Shown: positions 13,295 through 50,682 of the stretch, in pieces
Position numbering within the stretch: the first letter of the stretch is position 1
Layout: every line of letters begins with the position of its first letter
Assembly: GCA_947474395.1 (NCBI GenBank)
Contig: CANJID010000001.1
Span: forward strand, 18,083 to 82,082
DNA from: Caulobacterales bacterium
GTDB taxonomy: Bacteria; Pseudomonadota; Alphaproteobacteria; Caulobacterales; Caulobacteraceae
Length of the DNA stretch: 64,000 nucleotides
Reading direction: 5' to 3'
Position numbers and translations under genes: made by a program
The notes under the pieces: generated by a model
What the model was told of the DNA's origin: nothing
The model's database searches: none
The model's input: the letters and a program-made list of their open reading frames with translations, nothing else

Positions 13295-13342
13295 ACTCTT
13301 CCCCCTCTGGGGTAAGTACGCCCGAAGGGCGGGAAGGGGGCT
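13295..13342. repeat. Family-A REP/MITE-like element, half copy
   Basis: ACTCTTCCCCCTCTGGGGTAAGTACGCCCGAAGGGCGGGAAGGGGGCT matches the left arms of the elements at 17318 and 36823. It fills the convergent intergenic gap. Confidence 0.8.
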
Positions 13343-13961
13343 ACCGCCGCGGCGCGGTCCCAGGCACCGGCGCGCCCGATGCGCCCGGCGTTCCCGGCGT
13401 CCGGGGCATGGTCAGCCGCAGCGTCATGCCGCGATAGACTTCGACCCGGTCCATCACCACCATGTCCTCGGCGCCGGTCTGGCCCGGATGGGCGCGGGCG
13501 ATCAGGAAGTAGGCGCCGTCCGGCAGGTCCCGGAAGGTGAAGCTGTTCTGGGCGTCGCACTTCTCCGAGCGCACGAACTGGGCGTACTCGGGCGGGGCCG
13601 GGGTGGTGCGGGCGCGCACCTCGGTGACCGAGCGGATCGCTTCCACGTCCGAGCCGTAGAGCGAGACGATGCGGTCGCGGGAGTAGCGGGTCTGCGGCGT
13701 CAGCCCGACGTCGAGGCCGGCGCAGCTCCAGGTCCCGCCGGTGCGGGGCCGATAGGCCAGTGTCCCGACGATGCTGTTGGCGCCCCGGCCGACCGACCAG
13801 GCGAAATCGGCGGTGGTGAACTGGGCCGGGCCGACCGGCGCGGGCGGTGGCGGTGGCGGGGGCGGCGGCGTGGTGGCGCAGGCGGCCAAAGTCAGGACCG
13901 CCAGGGCGGGGCCCGCGATCCTGGAAAACCTACCAAAGCTCGAGCCCTTAGCCATCGTCAC
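13341..13961 (-). CDS. Lipoprotein with poly-proline linker, function unknown
   Basis: 206 aa. Lipobox LTLAAC followed by TTPPPPPPPPPAP. The C-terminal beta-rich domain (DLPDGAYFLIARAHPG) is reminiscent of carboxypeptidase-regulatory-like folds. Overlaps the upstream dioxygenase gene by 14 nt. Confidence 0.6.
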   Translation of the reverse strand: MTMAKGSSFGRFSRIAGPALAVLTLAACATTPPPPPPPPPAPVGPAQFTTADFAWSVGRGANSIVGTLAYRPRTGGTWSCAGLDVGLTPQTRYSRDRIVSLYGSDVEAIRSVTEVRARTTPAPPEYAQFVRSEKCDAQNSFTFRDLPDGAYFLIARAHPGQTGAEDMVVMDRVEVYRGMTLRLTMPRTPGTPGASGAPVPGTAPRR

Positions 13962-14763
13962 ACCCGAAACTTGTATTCCACGCCCGGCTTTCGCTCGATG
14001 TCCGGGGGAAGTTGGCGCGCTTCTCGGAAAAGTAGCGCTGGCGGTGGTCTCCGTCGTCGAGACGGTTGTAGGTGAGATAGAGGATGCGCCGCGCGTCCTT
14101 CGTCAAGTTCGGCTTGGAGGCGTGGGGCACATAGGAGTCGAAAAAGATCACGTCGCCGGGTTCCGTGGGCGTCGGGACGAGGTCGAAGCCCGCCATCTCC
14201 GCCGCCGAAAGGGGCCGCCATTCAGGGCCGATCATGCCGGGCAGGCGCGTGACATTGGCCATTTCCAGGCAGCCGTTCTCCATGGTGGCGCGGTCGATCC
14301 CCACCAGGGCCGTGACGAACAGGTCGGCGTAGGTCGACCAGCCGGCCTGCTGGTCCTGGTGCGGCTCGAAGCCGGCGCCGCCCGCCTCCTTGAAGTTGAT
14401 CTTCTCCTTGAAGAGGCATGCCTCCCCGCCGAGCAGCTGGTCGATCGCCCGGGCCAGCCGGCCCTCGCGCACCAGGCCGTCGAAGCCCGGATGATAGGGG
14501 CAGAAGTTCTCGATCCTCTGGATCACCCGCCGGCCGGCCTCGGTCAGGCTGTCCTCGCGGTAGACCATGTGCTCGCCGGGGACCTCCGGGCGTGCGGTCA
14601 GCTCGTCGGTCCAGGCGGCGATGGCCTGCGCCTCCGCTGGGGGGAAGAAGCCGCGCGCCACCACCCAGCCCATCCGCCGGTATTCGGCCATCTGCCGGGG
14701 GTCGAGCGGTCCGCTCAGAGCCTCGGCGTCCTTCATTCGGGTCGGGCGGGTCGGGGCGTTCAT
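13948..14763 (-). CDS. Phytanoyl-CoA dioxygenase (PhyH) family Fe(II)/2-oxoglutarate dioxygenase
   Basis: 271 aa from an internal ATG (MNAPTRPTRMKD...). HxD facial-triad motif FEPHQDQQ, distal His in FFDSYVPHAS, Arg in ARRILYLTY. 7-nt gap after the upstream nucleotidyltransferase. Confidence 0.75.
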   Translation of the reverse strand: MNAPTRPTRMKDAEALSGPLDPRQMAEYRRMGWVVARGFFPPAEAQAIAAWTDELTARPEVPGEHMVYREDSLTEAGRRVIQRIENFCPYHPGFDGLVREGRLARAIDQLLGGEACLFKEKINFKEAGGAGFEPHQDQQAGWSTYADLFVTALVGIDRATMENGCLEMANVTRLPGMIGPEWRPLSAAEMAGFDLVPTPTEPGDVIFFDSYVPHASKPNLTKDARRILYLTYNRLDDGDHRQRYFSEKRANFPRTSSESRAWNTSFGCDDG

Positions 14764-14770
14764 CGGTCGA

Positions 14771-15532
14771 TCATCGATTGGCGAGCTGGGGAAGGATGGT
14801 GTGACGGGCGCGCTCCACGTCGGCCTCGAAATCGATCTCGGTCCAGGGCAGGTCGCTGACATCCACCGCCCCGAAGCGGGCGGGCTCAGCCAGCATCAGG
14901 TCGCGGATGGCCTCCTCGTACTCGACCTTCAGCACCCCCCTGGCGACATAGTCGTCGCACCGGTCCCACAGGGCCGCCGCCGTCGCCGGTGAGAAGTGGA
15001 AGAAGCCCACCGACTCCCCGTGCCAGTCGTGGGCGTGCTCGGGCTTCTTGCGGAAGTCGACGATGGTCTCGCCGCGGAAGCAGATCTTCACCGGCTCGTC
15101 CCCCGGCTCAATCTCGCGGTCCACGAGAAGCGCGTTTTCCGCCGCGCCTTCGAACAGCCGGTCGATCATCCGCGAATCGTAGAGAACGTCGCCATCCATC
15201 AGCAGCACGGGACGGCCGCTCCGCATCAGCTCGCCCTGGGTCCAGAGCGAGACCAGGCTGCCCTCGGTGTAGCGCGGGTTCTCCACGAAATTCACCCGTC
15301 CTGCCTGTCCCAGCCGCTCGACCTCGGCGCGGATTTCCGCCCCGCGATGGCCCAACGTTATAGAGACGTCCCCGACGCCGGCTTCCCCCAGCGCCTCCAG
15401 ATGGCGCTGCAGCAGAGTCTTGCCGTCGAAGCTTAGCAGGACTTTCGGCCCGTCGTGACTGTCGCCCAGCCGGCGGCCTATCCCCGCGGCAAGGATGATC
15501 GCGCCCGCGTCCCTGTGACCCACGGATGACAC
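14771..15532 (-). CDS. LicC-like nucleotidyltransferase (candidate phosphonate/phosphoalcohol cytidylyltransferase)
   Basis: 253 aa. [13 protein letters not shown]...PKVLL signature of sugar/phosphocholine NTP-transferases, and [10 protein letters not shown]. Confidence 0.8.
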
Positions 15533-15654
15533 GCCCGCGATGCTCCTGCTGCATTTCTTCGAGAACGGCGAAGGTTTATAGAGCGGGCTTGCCGCCCCGC
15601 AAGGGGAACGGGCGGGCTTACGCCCCGCCGCAGTGGAAGTGTTGGATTTTCGCC

Positions 15655-17310
15655 ATGCCCCTCGACCAAGCCCGCCAGGGCGCCGCCTCGACCGACAAGG
15701 CCGCCGCGCCCGCCACGCGCTTCGCCGCGCTGCGGCAGGAAATCTTCGGGGACCGGCTGTCCTTCCTGATGGAGGCCCACGACGGCCTCTCGGCCAAGAT
15801 CGTCCAGGAGCAGGGCTTCCGCGGCATCTGGGCCTCGGGCCTGACCATGTCGGCGGCGCTGGGCCTGCGCGATTCGAACGAGGCCTCCTGGACCCAGGTG
15901 CTGGACGTCCTGGAGTACATGTCCGACGCCGTCTCCATCCCGATCCTGGTGGACGGGGACACCGGCTACGGCAACTTCAACAATGTGCGGCGACTGGTGC
16001 GCAAACTCTGCGATCGCGGGATCGCCGGGGTCTGCATCGAGGACAAGCTGTTCCCCAAGACCAACTCCTTCATCGGCGAGGCCCAGCCGCTCGCCGACAT
16101 CGAGGAGTTCTGCGGGCGCCTCAAGGCGGGCAAGGACAGCCAGACCGACGACGATTTCACCATCGTCGCCCGGGTCGAGGCCCTGATCTCCGGGCGCGGC
16201 ATGGAGGAGGCCCTGCGGCGGGCCGAGGCCTATCATTCGGCCGGCGCCGACGCGATCCTGATCCACTCCAAGAAGGCCGTGGCCGATGAGATCTTCACCT
16301 TCTGCGAGCGCTGGGGAAACCGCGCTCCGGTGGTGATCGTGCCGACCATGTACTACGCCACCCCGACCGACCTGTTCCGGCAGGCGGGGGTCTCCACCAT
16401 CATCTGGGCCAACCACCTGCTGCGCTCCTCGATCTCGGCCATGCGCGAGACCGCCCGCCGCATCCACGAGGACCAGTCCCTGGCCGAGGTGGAGGGCCGC
16501 GTCGCCACGGTGAAGGAAATCTTCGGCCTGGTGGGCAACGCCGAGCTGGAGGAGGCCGAGCGCCGCTACCTGCCGGGCGGGGCCAAGACCCGCGCCATCG
16601 TCCTGGCCGCCTCGGGCGGGGACCTGGGCGAACTGACCCGCGACGCCCCCAAGTGCATGATCGATATCCGTGGCCGCTCCCTGCTGCAGCGCCTGGTCTC
16701 CACCCTCAACGAGGGCGGGGTCCGCGAGGTCGCGGTGGTGCGCGGCTATCGCAAGGAGGCCGTCAGCCTGCCCGGCATCGTCACCGTCGACAACGATCGC
16801 TACGCCGAGACGGGCGAGCTCTATTCGCTCTCGACCGCCCGCCACCTGATCGAAGGCGAGACGGTGGTGGCCTATGGGGACGTCCTCTTCCGCAACTTCA
16901 TCCTCGAGAGCCTGATGGGCAGCGGCGCGGACATTGTCCTGGCCGTCGACGCGCTGAACCTGCCGGGCGCCCGCGCCGGGGTGCGCGACCTCGTGGTCGC
17001 CGACCGGGTCTTCTCCGGGGACTACCTCGACGACGCCCCGGTGAGCCTGGTCCGCATGGGCCACGACGTCCTCTCCGAGGCCGCCAGCGGCGAGTGGATG
17101 GGCCTGGCCCGCTTCAGCGCCAAGGGCGCCGAATGGCTCCGCGCCGAGATCGAGGCCATGGAGGCCGAGGGCCTGCTGGAGACCGCCGACCTGCCCTCCC
17201 TTCTGACGCGCCTTGCCGCCAAGCACCCGGTGCGGGTGAAGTACTTCAGCGGCCACTGGATGGACGTCGACAACCTCACCGACCTCGCCGACGCCCGCAA
17301 CTTCACCTGA
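15655..17310 (+). CDS. ppm: Phosphoenolpyruvate mutase fused to a C-terminal nucleotidyltransferase domain
   Basis: 551 aa from an internal ATG. The N-terminal ~300 aa carry [10 protein letters not shown] and [13 protein letters not shown] (PEP mutase EDKxxxxxNS). The C-terminal ~220 aa carry AIVLAASGG...[14 protein letters not shown]...VAYGDVLF (NTP-transferase fold). Confidence 0.9.
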
Positions 17311-17317
17311 GGCTCAC

Positions 17318-17451
17318 ACTCTTCCCCCGCCTGGGGGAAGTACGCCCGAAGGGCGGGAAGGGGGCTGAAGGGCGTTGCGGCCATGGTCGCGCCCTGCGGC
17401 CCCTATCGGCCCGAGGCAAGCTCGGCCCACTTCCCCCAGAGGGGGAAGAGT
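17318..17451. repeat. Family-A MITE/REP-like element, full copy
   Basis: About 22-bp imperfect terminal inverted repeats: ACTCTTCCCCCGCCTGGGGGAAG and CTTCCCCCAGAGGGGGAAGAGT. Each terminus is itself a GC hairpin. Lies in the 234-nt ppm-ppd gap. Confidence 0.8.
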
Positions 17452-17544
17452 TAGGAACGCTCGTCCTCAGCGCCCATTTGCCCTTTCGACTTCGCCGGCC
17501 AAACGCCTTAAATTGCTGATCATTCCAGGGGCAATTCCGACCGC

Positions 17545-18711
17545 ATGATCACCGCAGACGAGTTCATGGCCGAAGCCGGCCGCCGCGGCTTCGACTTCTA
17601 CACCGGCGTGCCGTGCAGCTATCTCACGCCCCTGATCAACGGGGTGCTCTCCAACCGCGCCCTGACCTATGTGGGGGCGGCAAGCGAGGGGGAGGCGGTG
17701 GCCATCGCGGCAGGCGCGTATCTGGCGGGCCGCAAGACGGTCGTGATGTGCCAGAACTCCGGCCTGGGCAACGCGGTCAATCCGCTGACCTCGCTGAACG
17801 CGCCCTTCCGCATTCCGACCCTGTTCATCACCACCTGGCGCGGCCGCCCCGGCGAGCCTGACGAGCCCCAGCACGAGGTGATGGGCCGCATCACCCAGGA
17901 CCTTATCGGCCTGATGGAGATCGAGCAGGCGCCGTTCCCGAACGAGGCGGCGGCCCTCGCCCCCGCCATCGACGCCGCCGTCCGTCACATGGATTCGGCC
18001 TCGCTTCCCTTCGCCTTCGTGATGAAGAAGGGCGACGTCCAGGATGGCGGCCTCGACCAGTCGCCCCTGTCCCGCCCGGCCGCCGGCCGGCGCGAGGACT
18101 TCGCCACCGGCGGCGAACGTCCGGCCCGCGCCGCCGTGCTGACCCGGTTCCTAGAGCTGACCGACGACCGCACCGCCGTCATCGCCACGACCGGCAAGTG
18201 CGGGCGCGAGCTCTTCACCCTCGCCGACCGGGACCAGCACCTCTACCAGGTCGGCTCCATGGGCGGGGCGAGCGGCATGGCCCTGGGGCTGGCCCTCAAC
18301 ACGGAACGCCCGGTGGTCGTGCTCGACGGGGACGGGGCGGCCCTGATGAAGCTCGGGACCTTCGCCACCGTCGGGGCCTACGCCCCGAAGAACCTGCTCC
18401 ACATCCTCCTGGACAACGGCGTGCACGATTCCACCGGGGGGCAGGCGACCGTCTCGGCGTCCGTGGACTTCGCCGCCATCGCGCTGGCCTGCGGCTACGG
18501 CTACGCGGCGTCCTGCGACAGTCTTGAGGGTTTCACTGCAGCCTTCCGCGCCGCCGCTTCGGCTACACGCCCGGCCCTGATCCACATGCGCATGGCCCCG
18601 GGCTCGATCGACAAGCTCGGCCGCCCGACCGTGACGCCCGCGGAGGTCGCCGCCCGCTTCAAGGCCTTCGTCGCCGGGGCGCCGGTCCGCAGCCCCGAGG
18701 CCGTTGCATGA
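17545..18711 (+). CDS. ppd: Phosphonopyruvate decarboxylase (ThDP-dependent)
   Basis: 388 aa. FYTGVPCSYLTPLIN N-terminus, ThDP motif VLDGDGAALMKLG...LDNGVHDSTGGQ. Confidence 0.9.
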   Translation: MITADEFMAEAGRRGFDFYTGVPCSYLTPLINGVLSNRALTYVGAASEGEAVAIAAGAYLAGRKTVVMCQNSGLGNAVNPLTSLNAPFRIPTLFITTWRGRPGEPDEPQHEVMGRITQDLIGLMEIEQAPFPNEAAALAPAIDAAVRHMDSASLPFAFVMKKGDVQDGGLDQSPLSRPAAGRREDFATGGERPARAAVLTRFLELTDDRTAVIATTGKCGRELFTLADRDQHLYQVGSMGGASGMALGLALNTERPVVVLDGDGAALMKLGTFATVGAYAPKNLLHILLDNGVHDSTGGQATVSASVDFAAIALACGYGYAASCDSLEGFTAAFRAAASATRPALIHMRMAPGSIDKLGRPTVTPAEVAARFKAFVAGAPVRSPEAVA

Positions 18712-19697
18712 AGTGGCCGGCCATCCTCGGCATCCTGATCGGCCTTGGCCTGGCGATCACGCTGATCGCCGCCAACGACGTGGGCAAGATCCTGGCCGCC
18801 CTCGTCGGCGCCGGCTGGGGCATCCTCCTGGTGATCGTCCTGCGCCTGCCCCAGACCATCGCGTCCGCGCTCGGATGGCGCGCCCTGGTGGCCGAGCCGG
18901 GCCCCAATATCGCGGTCTTCACCGGCCTGCGCTGGATCCGGGAGGCGGTGAACAACCTCCTGCCGGTGGCCGGAGTCGGCGGCGACGTCGTCCGCGCCCG
19001 CCTGCTCGCCCTCCAGGGCGTCAGCCTGAAGGGGGCCTCGGCCAGCGCCGCGGTGGACCTCAGCGTCGAGATGGCCAGCCAGATCGTCTTCGCCCTGATG
19101 GGCGTCGGCATGCTGCTGCTCTATCGCCCCGGGGTGGACACCCTCGGTTGGGTGCTGGGCGTCATCGGCGTCGGGGCGGTCATCGCCGGCTCCTTCATGC
19201 TCAGCCAGCGCTTCGGCCTGTTCAAGCTGGTGGAGAAGACCCTGGTCGCGGCCTCCGAGAAGGCCGGCTGGGCGGCGCTCGGCGACATCTCCGGCCTGCA
19301 TGAGGCGGTGGTGGCCCTCTACCGCAGCCCCGGCCGCTTCCTCCATTCGGGCGCCTGGCACATGGCGTCCTGGTTCTTCGGCGTGCTCGAGCTGTGGGCG
19401 GCCCTGCATGTGCTCGGGGTCGAGGCCGGGTGGCGCGAGGCCCTGATCATCGAGAGCCTCGGCCAGGCCATCCGCGGCGCCGCCTTCGCCGTGCCGGGGG
19501 CGCTCGGCGTGCAGGAGGGCGGCTACGTCCTGGTCTGCGCCCTCTTCGGCATCCCGCCGCAGCAGGCCATCGCCCTGTCCCTGATCCGGCGCATCCGCGA
19601 CCTCGTCCTGGGCGTGCCGGCCCTCATCGTCTGGCAGCGCATCGAGGGGCGTATGTTCGCCCGCCGCGCCGCTGCATCCGAGGCCGCGCCGTCGTGA
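18708..19697 (+). CDS. Polytopic membrane protein of the lysyl-PG-synthase TM-region/UPF0104 (flippase-like, HpnL-related) family
   Basis: 329 aa, multiple TM helices. RWIREAVNNLLPVAGVGGDVVRARLL motif is typical of the family. ATGA overlap with ppd and GTGA overlap with the transaminase. Confidence 0.7.
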   Translation: MKWPAILGILIGLGLAITLIAANDVGKILAALVGAGWGILLVIVLRLPQTIASALGWRALVAEPGPNIAVFTGLRWIREAVNNLLPVAGVGGDVVRARLLALQGVSLKGASASAAVDLSVEMASQIVFALMGVGMLLLYRPGVDTLGWVLGVIGVGAVIAGSFMLSQRFGLFKLVEKTLVAASEKAGWAALGDISGLHEAVVALYRSPGRFLHSGAWHMASWFFGVLELWAALHVLGVEAGWREALIIESLGQAIRGAAFAVPGALGVQEGGYVLVCALFGIPPQQAIALSLIRRIRDLVLGVPALIVWQRIEGRMFARRAAASEAAPS

Positions 19698-20797
19698 GCG
19701 ACAGCCCGCTCCTCCTCACCCCCGGGCCCCTGACCACGCGGGTCGAGACCCGCCGCGCCATGATGCGCGACTGGGGCTCGCGCGATCCGGCCTTCATCGC
19801 CCTGACCGCCGAGCTGCGCGAGCGCCTGCTGAAGGTGGCGGGCGGGGAGGGGACGCACGTCGCCATCCCCCTCCAGGGCAGCGGCACCTTCATCGTCGAG
19901 GCGGCCGTCGCCTCCATCGTTCCCCCCGAGGGCAAGCTGCTGGTCCTGGCCAACGGCGCCTACGGCGAGCGGATGATCGAGATCGCGCGCCGCATGGGCC
20001 GCGCCGTCGAGGCCCTGCGCTGGGCCGAGGACCGCCCCGTCGAGCCCGGCGCCGTCGCCTACGCCCTGGCCGCCGACCGGGACATCACCCACGTCGGCCT
20101 GATCCACTGCGAGACCACCACGGGCCTGCTCAATCCGCTGCAGGCGATCGCGCAGGCGGTGTCCGACGCCGGCCGGAGCCTGATCCTGGACGCCATGTCG
20201 AGCTTCGGCGCCCTGCCCATCGATCTTCAGACGACCCCGGTCACGGCCCTGCTCGCCTCTTCCAACAAGTGCCTGGAAGGCGTGCCGGGCATCGGCTTCG
20301 CCCTGGTCGACGCCCTCGCCGTCGGCAAGGCCAAGGGGAACAGCCCCTCCCTCAGCCTGGACCTTGCCGCCCAGCACCAGGGTTTCGAGGCCAACGGCCA
20401 GTGGCGCTTCACCCCGCCGGTCCAGGTGGTCGCCGCGGCCGTGGAGGCCCTGCGTCTGCTGGAGGCCGAGGGCGGCCCACGCATGCGCCTCTCCCGTTAC
20501 CAGGCCAATTTCGATACCCTCGCCGTCGGCATGCTGCGGCTGGGCTTCCCGCTCTACCTCGATCCCGGCCTGCAGGCGCCCATCATCGCCACCTTCCTGC
20601 CGCCCACGGATCGGGCATTCGCCTTCGAGCGGCTGTACGCGGGACTGGCGCAAAGAGGTTTTCTGATCTATCCGGGGAAATTGACGCAGGCGGAAAGCTT
20701 CCGCATTGGTTGTATAGGCGCGCTTGAGCCTGCGGATTTTGCTAGGTTGCTCGTAGCAATAGAGGCGGTCGCCGTCGAAATGGGCCTCTCGGCCTGA
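19694..20797 (+). CDS. phnW: 2-aminoethylphosphonate:pyruvate aminotransferase (PhnW/AepZ type)
   Basis: 367 aa from an internal GTG (VSDSPLLLTPGPLTT...). Class V aminotransferase with PLP lysine in SSNKCLEG. Confidence 0.88.
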   Translation: MSDSPLLLTPGPLTTRVETRRAMMRDWGSRDPAFIALTAELRERLLKVAGGEGTHVAIPLQGSGTFIVEAAVASIVPPEGKLLVLANGAYGERMIEIARRMGRAVEALRWAEDRPVEPGAVAYALAADRDITHVGLIHCETTTGLLNPLQAIAQAVSDAGRSLILDAMSSFGALPIDLQTTPVTALLASSNKCLEGVPGIGFALVDALAVGKAKGNSPSLSLDLAAQHQGFEANGQWRFTPPVQVVAAAVEALRLLEAEGGPRMRLSRYQANFDTLAVGMLRLGFPLYLDPGLQAPIIATFLPPTDRAFAFERLYAGLAQRGFLIYPGKLTQAESFRIGCIGALEPADFARLLVAIEAVAVEMGLSA

Positions 20798-20811: not shown

Positions 20812-21324
20812 GTGAGCCGGATGCTCAAGTTTTTCGCCATCACTGCCGTCCTGGCCACCCTGGTCTCTTCGCCCGCCGCGGCGGAGACCGGGCCGATCAG
20901 AGACATGGCCGCCGGCCTGAAGCGCCTGGTCGCCGCCGGCGCGCCCGGCGACGACGCCGCGCCGCTGCAGATCGTGGTCTGGAACCTGAAGAAGGCGCTG
21001 GGCACCGTGCGCGTGGCCATCTGCACCCCGGCTACCTTCCTGAAGACCGACTGTCCGTGGGAGGGCGTCGCCCAGGCCACGCCCCAGGGCGCGGTGGTGA
21101 CCATCGCCGGCCTGCCGCCGGGGGTCTACGCGGCCCAGGTGTTCCAGGACGAGAACGACAACCACCAGGTCGACCGCAATGTGCTGGGCGTTCCCAAGGA
21201 AGGGGTGGGCTTCTCCAACGACGCCCCAATCCTGCTGAAGGCGCCCAGCTTCGCCGCCGCCTCCTTCGAATATGCGGGCGAGGGCATGACCCTGCGCGTG
21301 AAGCTGCGCCACTTCACGCCGTAA
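20812..21324 (+). CDS. DUF2141 secreted protein
   Basis: 170 aa, signal peptide. QVFQDENDNHQVDRNVLGVPKEGVGFSNDA motif characteristic of DUF2141. Starts 15 nt after phnW. Confidence 0.6.
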   Translation: MSRMLKFFAITAVLATLVSSPAAAETGPIRDMAAGLKRLVAAGAPGDDAAPLQIVVWNLKKALGTVRVAICTPATFLKTDCPWEGVAQATPQGAVVTIAGLPPGVYAAQVFQDENDNHQVDRNVLGVPKEGVGFSNDAPILLKAPSFAAASFEYAGEGMTLRVKLRHFTP

Positions 21325-22758: not shown

Positions 22759-22760
22759 AT

Positions 22761-27926: not shown

Positions 27927-28021
27927 GGCGCGTTTCCACCGCCGGTCTTTGCATATGCGGCCCGCGGGCCTAGTCTCTCCTTATCGGCGGTAACAAAAGA
28001 ACGCCGGATGGGAGGTGACGC

Positions 28022-34841: not shown

Positions 34842-34933
34842 GGGCCGCGCCCTTCCCGCGGGCGGTCCCCGATGCGATCCTGATTCCGCGAGCGTGATGC
34901 AAGAGCCATGACGGCGGTCGGGTCAGGGGAAGC

Positions 34934-36823: not shown

Positions 36824-36941
36824 CTCTTCCCCCTCTGGGGGAAGTACCCGCGAAGCGGGGGAAGGGGGCTAAACGCGGCGCCCTTCAGCCCTCTCAGTCA
36901 GGCCGTTCGGCCTGCCAGCTCCCCCAGAGGGGGAGCAGTTA
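36821..36941. repeat. Family-A MITE/REP-like element, full copy
   Basis: TAACTCTTCCCCCTCTGGGGGAAG...GCTCCCCCAGAGGGGGAGCAGTTA. It fills the whole convergent gap, and its two TAA termini are the stop codons of the flanking genes. Confidence 0.8.
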
Positions 36942-43196: not shown

Positions 43197-45140
43197 CTAC
43201 AACCCCCAAACCACCGCTCTCGTATTCCCCCGCTTGAGGTTGCGATACCGCGCCAGGGCCCAGAGCGGGAAGAACTTCGGGTAGCCGTGGTAGCGGAGGT
43301 AGAAGACGCGGGGGAAGCCGCCGCCGGTGTAGTGGTCCTGGCTCCAGAGGCCGTCCGCTTCCTGGCGCGCGCGCAGCCACTCGATCCCCCGCGCGGTCGC
43401 CTCATGGTCCACCTCGCCCGCCGCCATCAGGCCGAGCACCGCCCAGGCGGTCTGTGAGGCGTTGGAGGGGGCCGGCTCGTAGCCACGATAGTCCAGCTTG
43501 TAGCTGTCGCAGTCCTCGCCCCAGCCGCCGTCCGCGTTCTGGATGGCGATCAGCCAGGCGGCGCCGCGCTTCATGGGTGGCGCTTCGGGAGGAACGCCGG
43601 CGCCGTTGAGGGCGGCCAGGGCCGACCAGGTGCCATAGACGTAGTTCACCCCCCAGCGGCCGAACCAGCTTCCGTCCTTCTCCTGGTCGGCCTCGATATA
43701 GGCCACGCCCTCGGCGGTGACGCTGTCCTCCATCCCCCGCCCGAGCTGGGCCAGCATGCCGACGCAGCGCGCCGAGACGTCCACCGTCGGCGGGTCGAGC
43801 AGGGCCCCATGGTCGGCGAAGGGGATGTTGTTGAGGTAGTGGTAGGTGTTGTCGGCGTCGAAGGCGCCCCAGCCGCCGCCCTTGGACTGCAGCCCGTCCA
43901 CCCATTCGGCGCCGCGGGATATGGCCTCGTCGAAGCGGGCGGCGTCGCCCTTCAGCAGGGGTTTGGCGCGATCCATGGCCATCACCACCACGGCGGTGTC
44001 GTCCACGTCCGGATAGTGGGGGTTGGCGTACTGGAAGCCCCAGCCGCCGGGGCGCACGTCCGGGCGCCGCTCGGCCCAGTCGCCTTTCACGTCGAGGATC
44101 TGCAAGGGTGCGAGCCAATCCAGCCCACGCTCGACGGCCCTGGTCGCCGGTTCTCCCCCGGCCTCCAAAAGCGCGTGGGCGGCGAGGCCCGTATCCCACA
44201 CCGGCGAGACGCAGGGCTGGCAGTAGGCCTCGTCCTCATGGACGACCAGCAGCTTCTCCACCGCCTTGCGGGCGATGGCGCGGTGGGGGTGGTCCGGGGC
44301 GTAACCCAGGGCGTCGAACATCATCACGGTGTTGGCCATGGCGGGGTAGATGGCGCCCAGGCCGTCCTCCCCGTTCAGCCGTTCCACCACGAAGTCGCGG
44401 CAGGCGGCGATGGCCTTCTTGCGCGTCGCCTTGGGGAAGTGCGGCTCCACCACCCGCAGGATCGCGTCGATGATCCCGAAGATGACGATCCATTCGCGCT
44501 TGCGGTGGGTGGGCTTCTTCGGCGGCGGCGGGGCGCCCGCGGCCCGGAACAGCTCGGGCACGCCCACGCCGCGGGCGTTCTTCGCCCGGGGCCGCATCGA
44601 AGTCAGGACCAGCAGCGGCACGATCACCGTCCGCGCCCAGTAGCTCATCTTCGACAGGTGCACCGGGAACCAGCGCGGCATCAGGATCAGCTCGACCGGC
44701 ATGCGGGGGATCGACTCCCAGGCGATCTGTCCGAACAGGGCGAGCTGGAAGCGGGTGAAGACATTGACCTCAGAGGCCCCGCCACGGGCCAGCACGGCTT
44801 CCCGGGCGCGCACCATGTGCGGACTGTTCGGATCGTCGCCGATCATCTTCAGGCAGAAATAGGCCTTCACCGTCGCCGAGATGTTGAAGGCGCCTCCGTG
44901 GAAAAGCGGCCAGCCGCCGTGCTCGCCCTGGATGCGGCGCAGGTACACGCCGATCTTGCGTTCAAGCTCGAGGTCCTCGGGCTCGCCCAGATAGTGGCGC
45001 AGCAGGACGTACTCGGCCGGGATGGTGGCGTCGGCCTCCAGCTCGAACACCCAATGCCCGTCGGCGCGCTGCAGCTTGAGCAGCCCCGCCGTCGCGCGGT
45101 CCACCGCCTCGTCCAGACTGTTCAGGTCGGCGTCGTACAT
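43197..45140 (-). CDS. shc: Squalene-hopene cyclase
   Basis: 647 aa from the internal ATG (MYDADLNSLDEAV...). Catalytic DVDDTAVVVMA (DxDD) and multiple QW repeats. The 50-aa N-terminal extension in the track ORF is a translated family-B repeat. Confidence 0.95.
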   Translation of the reverse strand: MYDADLNSLDEAVDRATAGLLKLQRADGHWVFELEADATIPAEYVLLRHYLGEPEDLELERKIGVYLRRIQGEHGGWPLFHGGAFNISATVKAYFCLKMIGDDPNSPHMVRAREAVLARGGASEVNVFTRFQLALFGQIAWESIPRMPVELILMPRWFPVHLSKMSYWARTVIVPLLVLTSMRPRAKNARGVGVPELFRAAGAPPPPKKPTHRKREWIVIFGIIDAILRVVEPHFPKATRKKAIAACRDFVVERLNGEDGLGAIYPAMANTVMMFDALGYAPDHPHRAIARKAVEKLLVVHEDEAYCQPCVSPVWDTGLAAHALLEAGGEPATRAVERGLDWLAPLQILDVKGDWAERRPDVRPGGWGFQYANPHYPDVDDTAVVVMAMDRAKPLLKGDAARFDEAISRGAEWVDGLQSKGGGWGAFDADNTYHYLNNIPFADHGALLDPPTVDVSARCVGMLAQLGRGMEDSVTAEGVAYIEADQEKDGSWFGRWGVNYVYGTWSALAALNGAGVPPEAPPMKRGAAWLIAIQNADGGWGEDCDSYKLDYRGYEPAPSNASQTAWAVLGLMAAGEVDHEATARGIEWLRARQEADGLWSQDHYTGGGFPRVFYLRYHGYPKFFPLWALARYRNLKRGNTRAVVWGL

Positions 45141-45188
45141 CCCGTTTGGGCTACACGATTTGAGCGCGGGGACCAATGCGGCGGGGTG

Positions 45189-45341
45189 TTTCCCTCTCCC
45201 CGGCGGGGAGAGGGAGGGGCCCGTTCGGCGTAGCCGAATGGGAAGGTGAGGGGGACTGGCGTGGTGCGGCCGTATCCCTGTCCCCCTCACCCGGCAGGCT
45301 GACGCCTGCTCGACCTCTCCCCACCGGGGAGAGGGAAAGGG
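45189..45341. repeat. Family-B ~153-bp structured repeat, copy 2 (inverted relative to copy 1)
   Basis: Terminal hairpins CTCTCCCC-GGC-GGGGAGAG and CTCTCCCC-ACC-GGGGAGAG. Occupies most of the intra-operon gap between the small ORF and shc. Confidence 0.85.
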
Positions 45342-45598: not shown

Positions 45599-46849
45599 TC
45601 AGCTCAGCGTCAGCCGGGCCGCCTCCACCCCCGACCGCACCGCCCCCTCGATGGTGGCGGGCAGTCCCGTGCGCGTCCAATCCCCAGCGAGGACCAGGTT
45701 GGAAAGCTCCGTGCGTGCGGGCGGGCGCTTGGCCTCCTGCTCCGGCGTGGCGGCGAAGGTCGCGCGCTTTTCCTTGACGATCTGCCAGGGGGGCAGGTCG
45801 GGGCCGAGGCCGTGCAGGGCGGCGACATCGGCCCACAGGGCGTGGGCCAGCCGCTCCCGGTCCCAGTCGACGATGCGGTCGGCGGCCGAGGTGGTGGTGG
45901 AGATGCGGCCCGGAAAGCAGAACACCCACTCCGCCGTGCCGCCGATCACCCCCACCATGGGGAGGGCCCCCGCGGGGGGCTCGATACGGAAGTGGCCGTT
46001 GACGATGGAGCGGAAGTCGTCGGGCGCCGACAGGCCCGGCAGGAGCTGTTGCGCCACCCAGGGCGGGACGGCCAGGACCACGGCCTCGCCCGCCGCCACC
46101 GGCGTCGTCTCGTCTCCGAAGTCGAGGCCGACGACCCGGCCGCCTTCGACGTCGAGCTTCTTCAGCCGCTGTCCCAGCCGCACCGATCCGCCGTGCGCGG
46201 TGAGCCAGGCCACCGCCGGATCGACGAAGGCCGCCGCCAGGGTCGGCTCGGCGATGCGCGGGCGATAGTGGGCGCCGCCCTTGGCCAGGGTTTCGCGCAG
46301 AACCGCCCCCGCCAGTTCGGCCGACGACGCTTCGGCTTCGGTATTGAGCGCCGCGACCAGGAAGGGCTGCATCAGCCGGTCCCACAGGGGCCCGCGGCAG
46401 GCCATGGCCTGGTCCACCCGCCGCGCCGCCGGCTGGGCGGGCAGGAGCTTGGCGATTTGCAGATAGTCGGCTGCCCTGGTTCCCGGCACGCGGCGCGCCT
46501 GCGACAGGACCCACCAGGCCAGCGGCCCCTCGTTGGGGCGCAGGCGCCAGCGCTCGCCGGTGCGGATGTCGGCCCAGTCGAACACCGCCCGGTCCGGCCC
46601 GGCCAGCCGGTCGCTCGCGCCGATGGTCGCCAGATAGTCCCGGACCGCGTGGTTGCCCGACAGGACCAGGTGGTTGCCGTTGTCGATGGTGAGGCCCAGC
46701 TCCTTGTCGAAGTAGGACCGGCACCGCCCCCCCGCTTGCGCCGCGGCTTCCGACACCTCGACGGAAAGGCCGCGTTCGGCCAGGCGCACGGCGGCGGACA
46801 GACCCGCCAGCCCGGCCCCGATCACGTGGACCTTGGCCCGGGCGCTCAT
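45599..46849 (-). CDS. hpnE: Hydroxysqualene dehydroxylase (FAD-dependent amine-oxidase fold)
   Basis: 416 aa. Dinucleotide motif VIGAGLAGLSAAVRLAERG. ATGA overlap with hpnD. Confidence 0.85.
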   Translation of the reverse strand: MSARAKVHVIGAGLAGLSAAVRLAERGLSVEVSEAAAQAGGRCRSYFDKELGLTIDNGNHLVLSGNHAVRDYLATIGASDRLAGPDRAVFDWADIRTGERWRLRPNEGPLAWWVLSQARRVPGTRAADYLQIAKLLPAQPAARRVDQAMACRGPLWDRLMQPFLVAALNTEAEASSAELAGAVLRETLAKGGAHYRPRIAEPTLAAAFVDPAVAWLTAHGGSVRLGQRLKKLDVEGGRVVGLDFGDETTPVAAGEAVVLAVPPWVAQQLLPGLSAPDDFRSIVNGHFRIEPPAGALPMVGVIGGTAEWVFCFPGRISTTTSAADRIVDWDRERLAHALWADVAALHGLGPDLPPWQIVKEKRATFAATPEQEAKRPPARTELSNLVLAGDWTRTGLPATIEGAVRSGVEAARLTLS

Positions 46850-47700
46850 CCCCCCAGCGCGCTCCGCAGCGCCAGCCAGATCTTGCGGGGTTTGGAGAGG
46901 CTCACCCGCGTGCGGGGCGCGGCCCAGCCCTGGCGTTCGGTGCGGCGCAGGATCTCGCTGTAGACCGCCTCCATCATCCGGGGCGCGGTGAGCCGCCCCT
47001 TGGGACGCTTTCGCATCAGGGCGTCGGCGTCGTGGTAGTGGGCGCGGGCGAGCGCGGCGACCTCGCGGGCCGCGGCGTCGATATTGGGATGGGCGATCAC
47101 CGCCGCCGGGGTGGTGACGGGCACGCCCGCCCGCTCCAGCGCCTCGCGGGGCAGGTAGAGGCGCCCGATGGCGGCGTCCTCGTCGAGGTCGCGCAGGATG
47201 TTGGTGAGCTGCAGCGCCTGGCCGAGGCTGCGGGCGAGGGCGATCCCTGGCTCCCGGTCCATGCCGAACACCTTGACCGACAGGCGTCCGACCGAGCTCG
47301 CCACCCGATCGCAGTAGAGGTCGAGTTCGGCGAGCGTCGGGGCCACGATGTCGCCGTCGGCGTCCATCTGCATGCCGTCGATCATGTCGATGAAGTCCGC
47401 GCGTTCCAGCCCGAACCGCCGCACAGCCTCGGCGAGGAACGCCGCCTGGCCCGCGTCGCCGCCGGCGTAGAGGGCGTCGATGTCGGCGCGCCAGGCGTCC
47501 AACTGCTTCTTGCGGTCCGCCCGGCTGCCCTCCCCATCGTCGGCGATGTCGTCCACCGCCCGGCAGAAGGCGTAGATGGCGAACATCCCCGCCCGCTCGG
47601 CCGGGGGCATCAGCTTCATGGCCGCATAGAAGGACGAGCCGGCGACCTTGGCCTCTAACGAGGCGATATTTGGCGCCGCCATGTCGGGGGCCGCGCTCAT
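46846..47700 (-). CDS. hpnD: Presqualene diphosphate synthase (squalene/phytoene synthase family)
   Basis: 284 aa. FCRAVDDIADD and ILRDLDEDA Asp-rich motifs. ATGA overlap with hpnC. Confidence 0.88.
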   Translation of the reverse strand: MSAAPDMAAPNIASLEAKVAGSSFYAAMKLMPPAERAGMFAIYAFCRAVDDIADDGEGSRADRKKQLDAWRADIDALYAGGDAGQAAFLAEAVRRFGLERADFIDMIDGMQMDADGDIVAPTLAELDLYCDRVASSVGRLSVKVFGMDREPGIALARSLGQALQLTNILRDLDEDAAIGRLYLPREALERAGVPVTTPAAVIAHPNIDAAAREVAALARAHYHDADALMRKRPKGRLTAPRMMEAVYSEILRRTERQGWAAPRTRVSLSKPRKIWLALRSALGG

Positions 47701-48533
47701 CGCCGCCTCAAGATGAGGCCGCCCGCCGCCAGCAGGGCGAGGCCCGCCATCTGCGGCTTGGAGTGGTGCACCTTTTCCGAAAGCGGATCGCGCACCTTCA
47801 GCAGCCGCGTCAGGCTCTCGGCCAGCCGCTGGATCACCGCCACCTCGAGGGCGAGGCGGGTGTCGTCGATCATCCGGGCGAAGGGCGCCGACGTCGCCAG
47901 CAGCCCCTCAGTCTGGATGGCCAGACTCCGGATCACACCGCGCAGGGCAGGGGAGGCGGATGGCTCGGCCAATGCTTCCACCCCGATCCCGGCCGCCGCC
48001 AGGGCGTCCGCGGGGATGTAGACCCGGTCGATGTCGCGGTAGTCCTTCCCGCAGTCCTGCAGGTGGTTGATCACCTGCAGCGCCGCGCAGAGGGCGTCGT
48101 TGGCGGGCCAGGAGCTGCGGTCCTCTCCGTGCACGTCCAGCACGTAGCGGCCGACCGGCGCGGCGGAATAGCGGCAGTAGTCCATCAGGTCGGACCAGTC
48201 GCGGTAGCGCGTCTTGGTGCAGTCCCGCCGGAAGGCTTCCAGGAGGTCGAGGGCGTGCTGCTCGCTCAAGGAGCGCTCGGCCAGGATCGCGCGCAGGGCC
48301 ACGCCCTCCCGGTTCTCGTCGCTCTCGCCGACCAGGCTGGCGCGCATGATCTCCAGGAGGCGCAGCTTCTCCTCGGCGGGGGCGGTAGCGTGGTCGGCCA
48401 CGTCGTCGGCGGCGCGCACGAAACGGTAGAAGGCCAGGATCGGCGCCCGGTGCTGCGGCTTGACGATCCCGGCGACGGGGAAGTTCTCATCCGAGTGCCC
48501 CTTGCCCGAGGCGAGGTCCGCCGCGCCCGTCAT
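47697..48533 (-). CDS. hpnC: Hydroxysqualene synthase (squalene synthase family)
   Basis: 278 aa from the internal ATG (MTGAADLASGKGHSDENFPVA...). FVRAADDVAD and HLQDCGKDY motifs. ATGA overlap with hpnB. Confidence 0.88.
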   Translation of the reverse strand: MTGAADLASGKGHSDENFPVAGIVKPQHRAPILAFYRFVRAADDVADHATAPAEEKLRLLEIMRASLVGESDENREGVALRAILAERSLSEQHALDLLEAFRRDCTKTRYRDWSDLMDYCRYSAAPVGRYVLDVHGEDRSSWPANDALCAALQVINHLQDCGKDYRDIDRVYIPADALAAAGIGVEALAEPSASPALRGVIRSLAIQTEGLLATSAPFARMIDDTRLALEVAVIQRLAESLTRLLKVRDPLSEKVHHSKPQMAGLALLAAGGLILRRR

Positions 48534-49684
48534 GCGTCGGGGCCCGTGATGGCCTGGGCGCGGCCTTTCCACATGCCGCCCTTGCCGCGCCAGACCTGCA
48601 CCGCCGAGGCGATGGTGAAGCCGGTGTAGATGGTCCCGATCACCGGCAGGGCCAGGGCCCAGAGGGGCGAGACGCGGTAGAACTTCAGCATGGGCAGGAA
48701 GGCGAGCGTCATCATCGCCCAGACCACGGCGCCGATGATCTGCTGCAGGCCGTGGCCGAACAGGGTCAGGACGATCGGCGCCAGGTAGGTGACGATCATG
48801 GCCATGACCGTGCCGACCAGGACCCAGACCGAATATTTCAGCTGTGCGAAGGCCGTGCGCGAGATCATCCGCCCGATCTCGCCGACGGTCAGATAGGGGC
48901 GCAGGCTGGTCGCCCGCTCGGTGAGGCCGAGCCAGATCGGGCCCTGCTCCTTCATCCGCCGCCCCAGGGCGCAGTCGTCGATGATCTCGCGGCGAATGGA
49001 CTCGATCCCGCCCGCCGCCTCCAGGGCTTCGCGCCTGGCCAGCATGCAGCCCCCCGCCGCGGCGGCGACAGCATGGTCGGGTTGGTTCACCCAGGCGAAG
49101 GGGAACAGCATGTCGAAGAAGAAGACGAAGGCGGGGATCAGCAGGCGCTCGGGCAGGGTGGCGCAATGCAGCCTGGCCATCAGCGAGACCAGGGTCAGGC
49201 CGCCGGCCTCGGCGCGCGCCACGAGCCTGCGCAGGTTATCCGGCGAATGGGCGATGTCGGCGTCGGTGAACCAGAGGTAGGCCGGCTTATTGCCCGCCTT
49301 CGCGACGCCCTGCTGCATAGCCCAGAGCTTGCCGGTCCAGCCTTCGGGCGGGGCTTTGCCGATCAGGATGGTGAGGCGGTCGGCGGCCTGCTGGACCGTC
49401 GCCGCCGCCTTGGCGGCCTCGGCGGTGCCGTCGTCCGACTGGTCGTCGATCAAGATCACGCGGAAGTCGCCGGGATAGTCCTGGGCCAGGAGGCTTCCCA
49501 CCGAGGTCGCGATCACGTCGGCCTCGTTGCGGGCCGGGACCACGGCGACGACGGCGGGCCAGGTCTCCGGATCGGACGGCTCGTTGCGGTCGTCCCGCTC
49601 GCGGGTCAGCCAGAACCAGCCGCGCCCGAACATCAGGTGCAGCCAGATCCCCAGGGTCGCGAGGGCGAAGAGCCAGGCCATCAT
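48530..49684 (-). CDS. hpnB: Hopene-associated family 2 glycosyltransferase
   Basis: 384 aa. VVAVVPARNEADVI...ILIDDQSDDGT (GT2 DxD region) and C-terminal TM helices. ATGA overlap with hpnA. Confidence 0.85.
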   Translation of the reverse strand: MMAWLFALATLGIWLHLMFGRGWFWLTRERDDRNEPSDPETWPAVVAVVPARNEADVIATSVGSLLAQDYPGDFRVILIDDQSDDGTAEAAKAAATVQQAADRLTILIGKAPPEGWTGKLWAMQQGVAKAGNKPAYLWFTDADIAHSPDNLRRLVARAEAGGLTLVSLMARLHCATLPERLLIPAFVFFFDMLFPFAWVNQPDHAVAAAAGGCMLARREALEAAGGIESIRREIIDDCALGRRMKEQGPIWLGLTERATSLRPYLTVGEIGRMISRTAFAQLKYSVWVLVGTVMAMIVTYLAPIVLTLFGHGLQQIIGAVVWAMMTLAFLPMLKFYRVSPLWALALPVIGTIYTGFTIASAVQVWRGKGGMWKGRAQAITGPDA

Positions 49685-50682
49685 TTCAGATAGCCGGAAG
49701 CGGCGAACCAGGCGACCGCGTCGGCGAGTCCCTCACGATAGGGGCGGGCGGTGTAGCCGAGCTCGCCTTGCGCCTTGGCCGAGGAGAAGAACATCTTGCG
49801 GCCGGCCATCTTCAGGGCGTCGGCGGTCAGGAAGGGCTCCTTGCCGGTGATCCGCGCCACCGCCTCGGCGGCGTAGGCGAGGGGATAGAGCGGCCCGGTC
49901 GGCAGGCTGACGGTGGGGGCCTTGCGCCCCGTCAGGGCGGCGATGCCGGCCAGCATGTCGCGCAAGGAGACGTCCTCGCCCCCGAGGATATAGCGCTCGC
50001 CGATCCTGCCCTTGGCGAAGGCCAGGAGGTGCCCCTCGGCCACGTCGTCCACATGCACCAGGTTCAGCCCGGTATCGACGAAGGCCGGCACCTTGCCGGT
50101 CGCGGCTTCCACGATCACCCGGCCCGTGGGCGTCGGCTTCACGTCGCGGGGGCCGATGGGGGTGGAAGGGTTGACGATCACGGCCGGCAGGCCCTCGGCG
50201 ACCATCCGCTCGACCAGCCGCTCGGCCGCCACCTTGCTGCGCTTGTAGGCCCCGATCGCGCCCGCCTCGGTCAGGGGCCGGGTCTCGTCCACGGGGGCGG
50301 TCGCGCCCTTCAGGTCCAGGGTGGCGACGCTGGAGGTGTAGACGATGCGCTCGACCCCGGCGTCGCGGGCCGCCTCCATAACGCTGCGCGTGCCGACCAG
50401 GTTGTTGCGGACGATCTCCTCGGGGTCCCGCGCCCAAAGCCGGTAGTCGGCGGCGACGTGGAAGAGGTAGCGCGCGCCCTGCATCGCCTTGGTCATGGAG
50501 GCGGGATCGCGCATGTCCCCCTCCACCAGCTCGGCGTCGAGACCGGCGAGGTTCTGGCGGGGGCTGGACTGGCGGATCAGGCAGCGGACATTGAAGCCGC
50601 GGGCGGCCAGGGCCCGGGCCACCGCCGAGCCGACGAAGCCCGAAGCCCCCGTCACCAGCACGCTGTCCCCGCCCGTCGCCAT
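49681..50682 (-). CDS. hpnA: Hopanoid-associated NAD-dependent sugar epimerase/dehydratase
   Basis: 333 aa from the internal ATG (MATGGDSVLVTGASGFVGSAV...). Rossmann TGxxGxxG and YxxxK (YKRSK). Confidence 0.85.
   Translation of the reverse strand: MATGGDSVLVTGASGFVGSAVARALAARGFNVRCLIRQSSPRQNLAGLDAELVEGDMRDPASMTKAMQGARYLFHVAADYRLWARDPEEIVRNNLVGTRSVMEAARDAGVERIVYTSSVATLDLKGATAPVDETRPLTEAGAIGAYKRSKVAAERLVERMVAEGLPAVIVNPSTPIGPRDVKPTPTGRVIVEAATGKVPAFVDTGLNLVHVDDVAEGHLLAFAKGRIGERYILGGEDVSLRDMLAGIAALTGRKAPTVSLPTGPLYPLAYAAEAVARITGKEPFLTADALKMAGRKMFFSSAKAQGELGYTARPYREGLADAVAWFAASGYLK

Follow-up and report, generated by a model that had tools for sequence, protein, structure and literature searches.

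Does a phosphonate pathway that lies beside hopanoid genes have anything to do with hopanoids, and if so, what do the two make together? The question is raised by a stretch of 64,000 nucleotides (hereafter the window) from a Caulobacterales bacterium (assembly GCA_947474395.1, contig CANJID010000001.1, positions 18,083 to 82,082 of the forward strand), in which genes predicted to make and activate 2-aminoethylphosphonate (AEP) are followed by a CDP-alcohol phosphotransferase gene and then by genes for hopanoid synthesis, isoprenoid supply and lipid trafficking. A first-pass annotation had proposed from this arrangement that a phosphonate- or phosphonoglycan-decorated hopanoid or outer-membrane lipid might be produced. 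We find that the adjacency of the two modules is far beyond chance. A functional link of some kind between them is very likely, and it is well supported because ppm and the tailoring genes of the phosphonate module co-occur with hpn genes, and lie in or near them, across many families. The neighbourhood is best explained as a conserved two-module envelope-lipid supercluster. That its product is a covalent phosphono-hopanoid is the best single reading of the gene context, one that we advance tentatively and rate as falling just short of an even prospect.

Genes of the window, which has a G+C content of about 70%, were picked by third-position G+C, and the picked genes were scanned against NCBIfam and Pfam with curated cut-offs applied. 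All the genes named in the first-pass annotation were found, most of them scoring above NCBIfam cut-offs, and the family matches bore out both the AEP pathway placed at 13.3-20.8 kb and the CDP-alcohol transferase placed at 24.6 kb (Table 1). Equally present, and all above curated cut-offs, were hpnN, hpnM-dxs-ispA, ispH-hpnH, hpnG, shc and hpnEDCBA, and the overlaps claimed for the dxs/hpnM, ispA/dxs and hpnA-B-C-D-E junctions proved exact. The description of hpnG, shc and hpnEDCBA as following hpnH was right as to the genes but not as to the contiguity of hpnG and shc, between which lie some 5.6 kb of small, unrelated genes, ibpA among them. No hpnP, hpnR, hpnO, hpnI, hpnJ or hpnK was detected among the large open reading frames (ORFs) of the window (its small ORFs were not all scanned), in agreement with the earlier statement; an hpnJ gene exists on another contig of the genome.

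The window's proteins were compared by tblastn with 108 related loci, of which at least three are the same contigs fetched twice (L026 = L009, L027 = L014, L028 = L006); locus counts are slightly inflated by this. Gene content was compared in four sets: 151 genomes of the window's own family, an even sample of 401 genomes of its class, a separate sample of 401 genomes of its phylum, and 49 genomes of a species-level collection that carry the nearest relatives of its Ppm. In the Ppm alignment the closest relatives come from Caulobacter, Caulobacteraceae and Phenylobacterium metagenome-assembled genomes (MAGs). A place of the genome in the Caulobacteraceae is therefore probable; the same-family genomes also group with these relatives in the HpnL tree, and the window has RsaA-like S-layer genes.

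Judged by its family matches, the phosphonate part of the window is a full copy of the seven-gene cassette described as 'Group 1 phosphonolipid' clusters (Yu et al. 2013), which correspond to the 'Burkholderiales_CDP-OH' families of ppm gene clusters (Li & Horsman 2022, PMC8942020). It comprises Ppm::PntC, Ppd, an AEP transaminase, an alpha-ketoglutarate/Fe(II) oxygenase, a second PntC, a CDP-alcohol phosphotransferase and an LPG_synthase_TM/HpnL-like protein, the last two answering to the pair of 'phospholipid biosynthesis' genes in the published core. The Burkholderiales_CDP-OH family accounts for ~36% of RefSeq ppm neighbourhoods and is predicted to make a 1-hydroxy-AEP lipid; it is chemically uncharacterised, though its ppm is expressed (PMC8942020). 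Burkholderiaceae loci (Burkholderia, Caballeronia, Cupriavidus, Pandoraea and Pararobbsia) contain homologues of each cassette gene at 33-55% identity, the values for the window's transferase and HpnL being 33-39%. In Burkholderia, however, the Group 1 cassette mostly stands alone, whereas in the window and in many Alphaproteobacteria it abuts hopanoid genes or interleaves with them. Gene order and transferase number also differ, the window having one paralogue where many other clusters have two or three. The nearest named layout is that of Pseudoroseomonas coralli (Acetobacteraceae; L018), where the order is identical to that of the window: pntC / ppm-ppd-hpnL-phnW / transferase / hpnN / hpnM.

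By sequence, the cassette encodes a stand-alone PntC-type cytidylyltransferase and a second one that forms a fusion with Ppm, both with a predicted substrate specificity. In the fusion protein the NTP-transferase matches extend over residues 356-476, and the top Protein Data Bank (PDB) match of the stand-alone protein is a nucleotidyltransferase/aminotransferase fusion, 6pd1, presumably the PntC-AEPT from Treponema described by Rice et al. The PhyH-family oxygenase is a predicted 1-hydroxylase of AEP. It reaches 148 bits against NF052437 (methylphosphonate hydroxylase), which is below the cut-off and makes it a relative rather than an equivalog, and homologues of it recur in 32 of the 108 related loci. 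The hpnL gene of the cassette is translationally coupled at both ends (ATGA and GTGA overlaps) and lies 5.6 kb from hpnN; its TIGR03476 score and hopanoid neighbourhood place the protein in the HpnL family, with a predicted flippase role. The transferase gene, the sole copy in the genome, is divergent from hpnN over 155 nt, and its product is predicted to be a cytidine monophosphate (CMP)-phosphonate:lipid-alcohol phosphonotransferase. Its NCBIfam and PDB matches are weak and split between CDP-diacylglycerol enzymes, among them phosphatidylinositol (PI) synthase (6h53), and CHPT1/CEPT1/DIPPS-type enzymes (8ero, 8gyw; E about 1e-5 to 1e-6). The match to CHPT1/CEPT1, which use a soluble CDP-alcohol donor and a lipid alcohol acceptor, covers most of the length of the transferase.

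The occurrence of the cassette closely follows that of hopanoid genes. Ppm scored above the cut-off in 40 of the 401 class genomes, and 37 of these 40 have shc as against 122 of the 401 (30%) overall (Fisher odds ratio 40, p = 4e-18, kinship being ignored). The three shc-less genomes also lack hpnH, and their Ppm frames of 310-439 aa are too short for the fusion, which needs about 555-740; hpnH was found in every one of the 36 other class genomes with both ppm and shc. All genomes of the class sample with a ppm::pntC fusion carry shc and hpnH, and the fusion-type genomes represent ~23 families, all hopanoid-positive, shc itself being found in roughly 72 of the ~205 families sampled. Within the window's own family a true ppm is present in 22 of the 151 genomes; all 22 have shc and hpnN, with shc occurring in 58 of the 151. 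Among the 49 genomes with the nearest Ppm relatives, 44 have shc, including 19 out of 19 Burkholderiaceae, and the five that do not (two Treponemataceae, a member of the Cyclobacteriaceae, a deltaproteobacterial MAG and a member of the Bacteroidales) are also without homologues of the transferase and of HpnL. In the phylum sample, stand-alone pntC orthologues were found in only four other genomes; all four have hpnH, in one case at 10 kb from pntC. Over the genomes compared, orthologues of the stand-alone pntC were confined to those with hpnH.

The two sets of genes are also repeatedly found together on the chromosome. In 16 of the 36 class genomes, belonging to 12 families, ppm lies 7-17 kb from shc on the same contig; the two are megabases apart in 4 of the 36 and on different contigs, mostly unresolvable, in the other 16. 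In the own family, ppm is linked to hopanoid genes in the window's own genome (G000), in G035 (4 kb from hpnN) and in G037 and G089 (14-21 kb from shc). Hopanoid and cassette genes form adjacent pairs on the same strand in 35 of the 108 related loci, through the junctions transferase-hpnA (15 loci), hpnN-pntC (14), hpnM-ppm (13) and transferase-hpnN (8), and in L003 hpnN/pntC and transferase/hpnA are each joined by a 4-nt overlap. Many unrelated Alphaproteobacteria share a typical interleaved order, hpnD-hpnE-shc-hpnG / hpnH-ispH / hpnA-transferase-pntC-hpnN / hpnM-ppm::pntC-ppd / phnW, and the cassette is joined to dxs, hpnN or hpnH in a gammaproteobacterial MAG (L097) and in Pararobbsia/Pandoraea (L075, L088). 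The question put by the first-pass annotation, whether ppm co-localises with shc and hpnN in related genomes, is answered positively by this co-occurrence and by synteny that recurs across families. Far from being unique to one strain, the association is found in many families of Alpha-, Beta- and Gammaproteobacteria. As for the two genes of unclear role that had been singled out, hpnA is the most frequent hopanoid partner of the transferase; hpnB, and with it the idea of a phosphonoglycan, found no specific backing, hpnB adjoining a cassette gene in a single locus.

Some tailoring genes persist where Ppm is missing. Stand-alone pntC orthologues occur in only 9 of 80 shc-positive genomes that have no Ppm match above the cut-off, although G501, one of the nine, does have a truncated Ppm where a contig ends. 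Eight of the loci were retrieved (L098-L105); besides pntC, each has at least one of the oxygenase, HpnL and transferase genes and some have them all, and in six of the eight pntC lies inside an hpn cluster. In G316, which is 98% complete, hpnN-pntC-oxygenase-hpnL and the transferase stand beside shc (L098, G316:C3) and there is no Ppm. Since the tailoring genes stay in hpn clusters without Ppm, their tie to the hpn genes is no looser than that to ppm. Such Ppm-less hopanoid producers may take up AEP from their surroundings or employ a head group that is not a phosphonate.

From family membership, Ppm would convert phosphoenolpyruvate to phosphonopyruvate, Ppd would drive the reaction on to phosphonoacetaldehyde and the transaminase would yield AEP. 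The PhnY*-like oxygenase would probably hydroxylate C1 to give 1-hydroxy-2-AEP, the Ppm-fused PntC domain and/or the stand-alone PntC would form the CMP-phosphonate, and the CDP-alcohol phosphotransferase would then pass the phosphonyl head group to a membrane-lipid hydroxyl at the cytoplasmic face. In the hopanoid module, squalene made by HpnCDE and fed by the dedicated dxs, ispA and ispH genes would be cyclised by Shc and extended by HpnH and HpnG. Gene context suggests that the acceptor is an extended, bacteriohopanetetrol (BHT)-type hopanoid polyol, so that the product would be a phosphono-hopanoid with a zwitterionic character. Its passage to the periplasmic leaflet would fall to the HpnL-type protein, and its export to the outer membrane to HpnN/HpnM, perhaps together with an MlaA-like lipoprotein. 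HpnA may act next to the transferase, because the transferase-hpnA junction is frequent, and by way of speculation it might prepare the acceptor hydroxyl. The same scheme can be extended to the Group 1/CDP-OH cassette in general, including its Burkholderia copies, which would make bacteriohopanepolyols that carry 2-AEP or 1-hydroxy-2-AEP in ester linkage on a hydroxyl of the side chain, with HpnL as flippase, HpnN/HpnM as exporters and HpnA as a possible supplier or preparer of the acceptor hydroxyl; we consider this generalisation plausible, though we would not call it probable. The link between the two pathways that had been proposed for the window is upheld, and attachment of the phosphonate to a hopanoid, rather than to diacylglycerol or another acceptor, is a proposal from gene context.

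Each part of this scheme has known counterparts. In the Pnt pathway (Rice et al. 2019, PMC6697681), as in the window, Ppm, Ppd and AEPT make AEP and a LicC-like nucleotidyltransferase, often fused to Ppm, gives CMP-AEP. In the characterised Pnt systems (Atopobium, Treponema) the partner enzymes are LicD-type or glycosyl transferases and the presumed targets are glycans, whereas the window has a CDP-alcohol phosphotransferase and hopanoid partners; unlike the window's genome, the Treponemataceae genomes checked have no shc. The hopanoid part resembles the canonical hpn clusters of Zymomonas, Rhodopseudomonas palustris TIE-1 and Burkholderia in containing shc, hpnCDE, hpnH, hpnG, hpnN, hpnM, hpnA, hpnB, hpnL and dedicated genes of the methylerythritol phosphate (MEP) pathway, but descriptions of those clusters include no phosphonate genes. 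The transfer step follows the same predicted logic as eukaryotic CHPT1/CEPT1 and the Tetrahymena-type AEP-lipid route, in which a soluble CMP-linked head group is passed to a lipid alcohol, and the sequence similarity is distant. The acceptor of CHPT1/CEPT1 is diacylglycerol, whereas that of the window's transferase is, by gene context, possibly a hopanoid polyol.

Several observations weigh against a phosphono-hopanoid. The acceptor specificity of a CDP-alcohol phosphotransferase cannot be read from sequence, and the eukaryotic precedent for AEP lipids has diacylglycerol as acceptor. In the window itself the modules stand side by side and are not interleaved, hpnM is coupled to dxs-ispA and not to ppm, and the transferase gene heads a minus-strand operon, the DUF1800/DUF1501 pair lying downstream of it in the same orientation. 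The cassette can also be remote from hopanoid genes: ppm is 0.9-2 Mb from shc in G453, G198, G502 and G166 (hpnN was not located in those four), far from both shc and hpnN in the complete same-family genomes G011 and G036, and on a different large contig in G054, while 17 of 19 cassette-bearing Burkholderiaceae loci have no hpn gene within 10 kb. The co-occurrence statistics were computed without a phylogeny correction. We found no report of a phosphorus-containing bacteriohopanepolyol, and a 2025 survey of 52 alphaproteobacterial strains by ultra-high-performance liquid chromatography-mass spectrometry, covering 63 structures from strains whose cassette content is not established, does not mention phosphonates (PMC12583986).

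The cassette could instead make a phosphonolipid that is not a hopanoid, such as diacylglyceryl-(1-hydroxy)-AEP, and that is deployed alongside hopanoids in the outer membrane; the genetic tie would then reflect shared HpnN/HpnM/HpnL trafficking, shared regulation or a dependence on hopanoids for packing. Such a lipid was the original prediction for Group 1 clusters (Yu et al.), and this reading agrees with the similarity of the transferase to CDP-diacylglycerol enzymes (PI synthase as well as PIP/archaetidylinositol-phosphate synthases), with the solitary cassettes of Burkholderia and of several complete genomes, and with the fact that no phosphono-hopanoid is known. It leaves unexplained, however, why the cassette is nearly restricted to genomes with hpnH and shc, why pntC-hpnN and transferase-hpnA are translationally coupled and why tailoring genes are kept in hpn clusters that have no ppm; moreover, extensive lipid studies of Burkholderia have yielded no glycerophosphonolipid of this type (PMC8942020). 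We regard such a lipid as a serious possibility, if a somewhat improbable one. That the CMP-phosphonate decorates a glycan or protein (lipopolysaccharide core or lipid A, an exopolysaccharide or a neighbouring S-layer protein), its proximity to hopanoid genes reflecting an envelope-remodelling island, we consider unlikely. The transferase is of the CDP-alcohol (membrane lipid) type and not a LicD-type glycan phosphotransferase, and the 108 loci contain no recurrent glycan-assembly genes, their recurring partners being hpnN, hpnA and hpnM. Decoration of this kind would match most characterised Pnt pathways, which act on glycans (PMC6697681), and HpnL relatives (AglD/LPG_synthase_TM) are tied to S-layer modification in InterPro (bioRxiv 10.1101/2025.07.29.667474). 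Two RsaA-like S-layer genes with RTX repeats, hpnB (a GT2 glycosyltransferase) and hpnA (a short-chain dehydrogenase/reductase) do lie nearby, but the S-layer genes did not recur in the related loci.

It is very improbable that the adjacency is meaningless, two unrelated pathways having been joined by chance or by hitch-hiking on a transferred island. A reader of the window alone might think so: its modules are mere neighbours, it contains insertions (DUF1800/DUF1501, cytochrome c/PQQ, the ibpA island), the HpnL tree hints at an Acetobacteraceae-like transfer of the AEP operon, and a search for a shared promoter motif in the pntC|ppm, transferase|hpnN and ispA|ispH intervals and upstream of hpnG, hpnA and shc returned only trivial GC-rich 11-mers. 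The arrangement, though, turns up in 12 or more families within the class and across three classes of Proteobacteria, in varied gene orders and in shared operons, and the co-occurrence with shc/hpnH is near-absolute; we rejected chance adjacency on these grounds.

The adjacency and the idea that it suggests are not new, and what is added here is the breadth and tightness of the association. Linkage of shc to ppm was reported in several Roseomonas species, with the proposal of an 'undiscovered terpene-phosphonate' (PMC8776678, 2021), and squalene synthase and cyclase genes were noted in Nitrosococcus ppm neighbourhoods together with the mention of a 'phosphonoterpene' that cited earlier speculation (PMC8942020, 2022). 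These remarks, of one sentence each, record the same adjacency and the same speculation in antiSMASH/BiG-SCAPE surveys, without co-occurrence statistics, operon analysis or chemistry, and the window belongs to another family than theirs, probably the Caulobacteraceae. The earlier statement that such a molecule has not been described holds within the searchable literature, the hypothesis itself having been voiced in the two papers. HpnL, HpnA and HpnB are still listed as being of unexplained function in two recent studies of hopanoid synteny and chemotaxonomy, which never mention phosphonates (bioRxiv 10.1101/2025.07.29.667474; PMC12583986).

Hopanoids belong to the major membrane lipids of bacteria and are key biomarkers in geology, and phosphonates are a large biological and marine pool of phosphorus. 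The association reported here links two orphans, the product of the most abundant class of ppm clusters and the roles of HpnL, HpnA and HpnB, and the near-obligate coupling makes it directly testable what the commonest ppm cassette produces and what HpnL does. A phosphono-hopanoid, if made, would be a new lipid class, a zwitterionic outer-membrane lipid, a new sink for C-P phosphorus and a potential biomarker. It would matter for the robustness of the outer membrane in Burkholderia and in many Alphaproteobacteria of the environment, would assign roles to HpnL and the orphan cassette alike, and would account for the failure to find a glycerophosphonolipid in such bacteria. A glycerophosphonolipid dependent on hopanoids, should that be the product, would still reveal an unrecognised coupling of two envelope lipids.

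Table 1. Features of the window, with positions, strand and the matches or remarks that support each assignment.
Feature	Position	Strand	Match or remark
PhyH-family Fe(II)/2-oxoglutarate oxygenase, PhnY*-like	13948-14862	-	PF05721 82 bits
Stand-alone PntC-like cytidylyltransferase, 253 aa	14771-15532	-	NTP_transf_3 61 bits
Ppm::PntC (phosphoenolpyruvate mutase + C-terminal nucleotidyltransferase)	15526-17310	+	TIGR02320 388 bits (cut-off 320), residues 70-338
ppm-ppd spacer	17311-17544		234 nt
Ppd, phosphonopyruvate decarboxylase	17545-18711	+	TIGR03297 430 bits (cut-off 313)
HpnL-family/LPG_synthase_TM flippase-like membrane protein	18708-19697	+	TIGR03476 286 bits (cut-off 196); PF03706 110 bits
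2-Aminoethylphosphonate:pyruvate transaminase (AEPT/PhnW-type)	~19694-20797	+	NF010006 465 bits (cut-off 296)
Secreted DUF2141 protein	20812-21324	+	PF09912 88 bits; signal-peptide-like N-terminus; 3' of phnW
DUF1501	21376-22764	-	Pfam match
DUF1800	22761-24455	-	Pfam match
CDP-alcohol phosphotransferase	24553-25143	-	PF01066; intact DxxDGxxAR...GxxxDxxxD motif
HpnN, RND hopanoid transporter	25299-27926	+	NF052374 1158 bits (cut-off 1100)
97-aa ORF	28019-28309	+	third-position G+C 0.91; signal-peptide-like start
HpnM, MlaC-like periplasmic protein	28327-28977	-	TIGR03481 192 bits
dxs, second copy	28974-30803	-	family match; GTGA overlap with hpnM
ispA, second copy	30803-31771	-	family match; TGATG overlap with dxs
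ispH, second copy	32076-33035	+	family match
hpnH, adenosylhopane synthase	33069-34229	+	TIGR03470 531 bits
Small cytochrome c and 629-aa haem-c/PQQ-propeller protein	34290-36823	+	between hpnH and hpnG
HpnG, hopanoid-associated phosphorylase	36939-37598	-	TIGR03468 191 bits (cut-off 187)
Shc, squalene-hopene cyclase	43197-45290	-	TIGR01507 739 bits
hpnA-hpnB-hpnC-hpnD-hpnE operon	45599-50760	-	TIGR03466, TIGR03469, TIGR03464, TIGR03465, TIGR03467, all above cut-offs; four ATGA overlaps
Two tandem genes, ~740-765 aa	50835-55665	-	directly past hpnA; SapA-like (S-layer-associated protease) N-terminal region, C-terminal RTX repeats (S-layer type)
MlaA-like lipoprotein	55913-57019	-	NF011672 119 bits, partial
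Stretch comprising the MlaA-like lipoprotein above and the adjoining NodT-family outer-membrane efflux factor	55913-58586	-	~5 kb past hpnA

In the hopanoid module, the HpnC/D/E-type matches (TIGR03464, TIGR03465 and TIGR03467) reach 272, 326 and 407 bits. The dxs, ispA and ispH genes of the cluster are 59%, 50% and 54% identical to the other copies in the genome (dxs and ispA on contig C2, ispH on C18), which are taken to be the housekeeping ones. The window's copies being extra, the hopanoid cluster carries its own isoprenoid supply genes. A second HpnL (273 bits) is encoded on contig C33 (20590-25155) between hpnJ (TIGR03471, 819 bits) and a GT4 glycosyltransferase, and the genome probably also makes hopanoids of the cyclitol-ether type, though the window is without hpnIJK.

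In the HpnL tree, the copy in the window's AEP operon groups with Pseudoroseomonas/Acetobacteraceae copies (support 100/98), and the hpnJ-linked copy groups with Caulobacteraceae copies that themselves lie beside hpnN, transferase or pntC genes. Because the two copies of one genome part in this way, the tree hints that the AEP operon was acquired laterally from an Acetobacteraceae-like source. We also considered whether the operon HpnL forms a subfamily apart from 'true' hopanoid HpnL; this was unsupported, there being no clean split in the tree between cassette-linked and hpn-linked copies. The transferase family falls into at least four paralogous clades in such clusters, many of which have two or three copies, and the window's only copy belongs to a clade with PhnW/Ppd/HpnN neighbours. 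In G011 and G036 (loci L106 and L107), ppm::pntC is accompanied by pntC and the oxygenase alone, with no homologue of Ppd, the transaminase or the transferase within 10 kb.

The AEP operon is separated from the transferase gene by the DUF2141, DUF1501 and DUF1800 genes. Five distant loci (L005, L011, L012, L021 and L022) have a homologue of the DUF2141 protein encoded right next to hpnM or hpnN, and the protein may be a periplasmic or envelope accessory of the hopanoid/phosphonate system. The DUF1800/DUF1501 pair was rejected as a core part, having no homologue in any of the 108 related loci, and appears to be a local insertion; the cytochrome c/PQQ-propeller pair (0 of 108) was likewise set aside as a lineage-specific insertion. 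The spacer between ppm and ppd is flanked by a long palindrome (CTCTTCCCCC ... GGGGGAAGAG) with extra internal G/C hairpins and looks like a REP-like element within the operon.

Beyond the region covered by the first-pass annotation, the MlaA-like lipoprotein is a candidate outer-membrane partner of HpnM/HpnN of the 'HpnS' type, MlaA-family ('HpnS') genes having been reported as enriched near shc (bioRxiv 10.1101/2025.07.29.667474). In L005 an MlaA-like ORF sits between hpnM and the oxygenase gene. The 97-aa ORF in the convergent gap between hpnN and hpnM may encode a small secreted protein.

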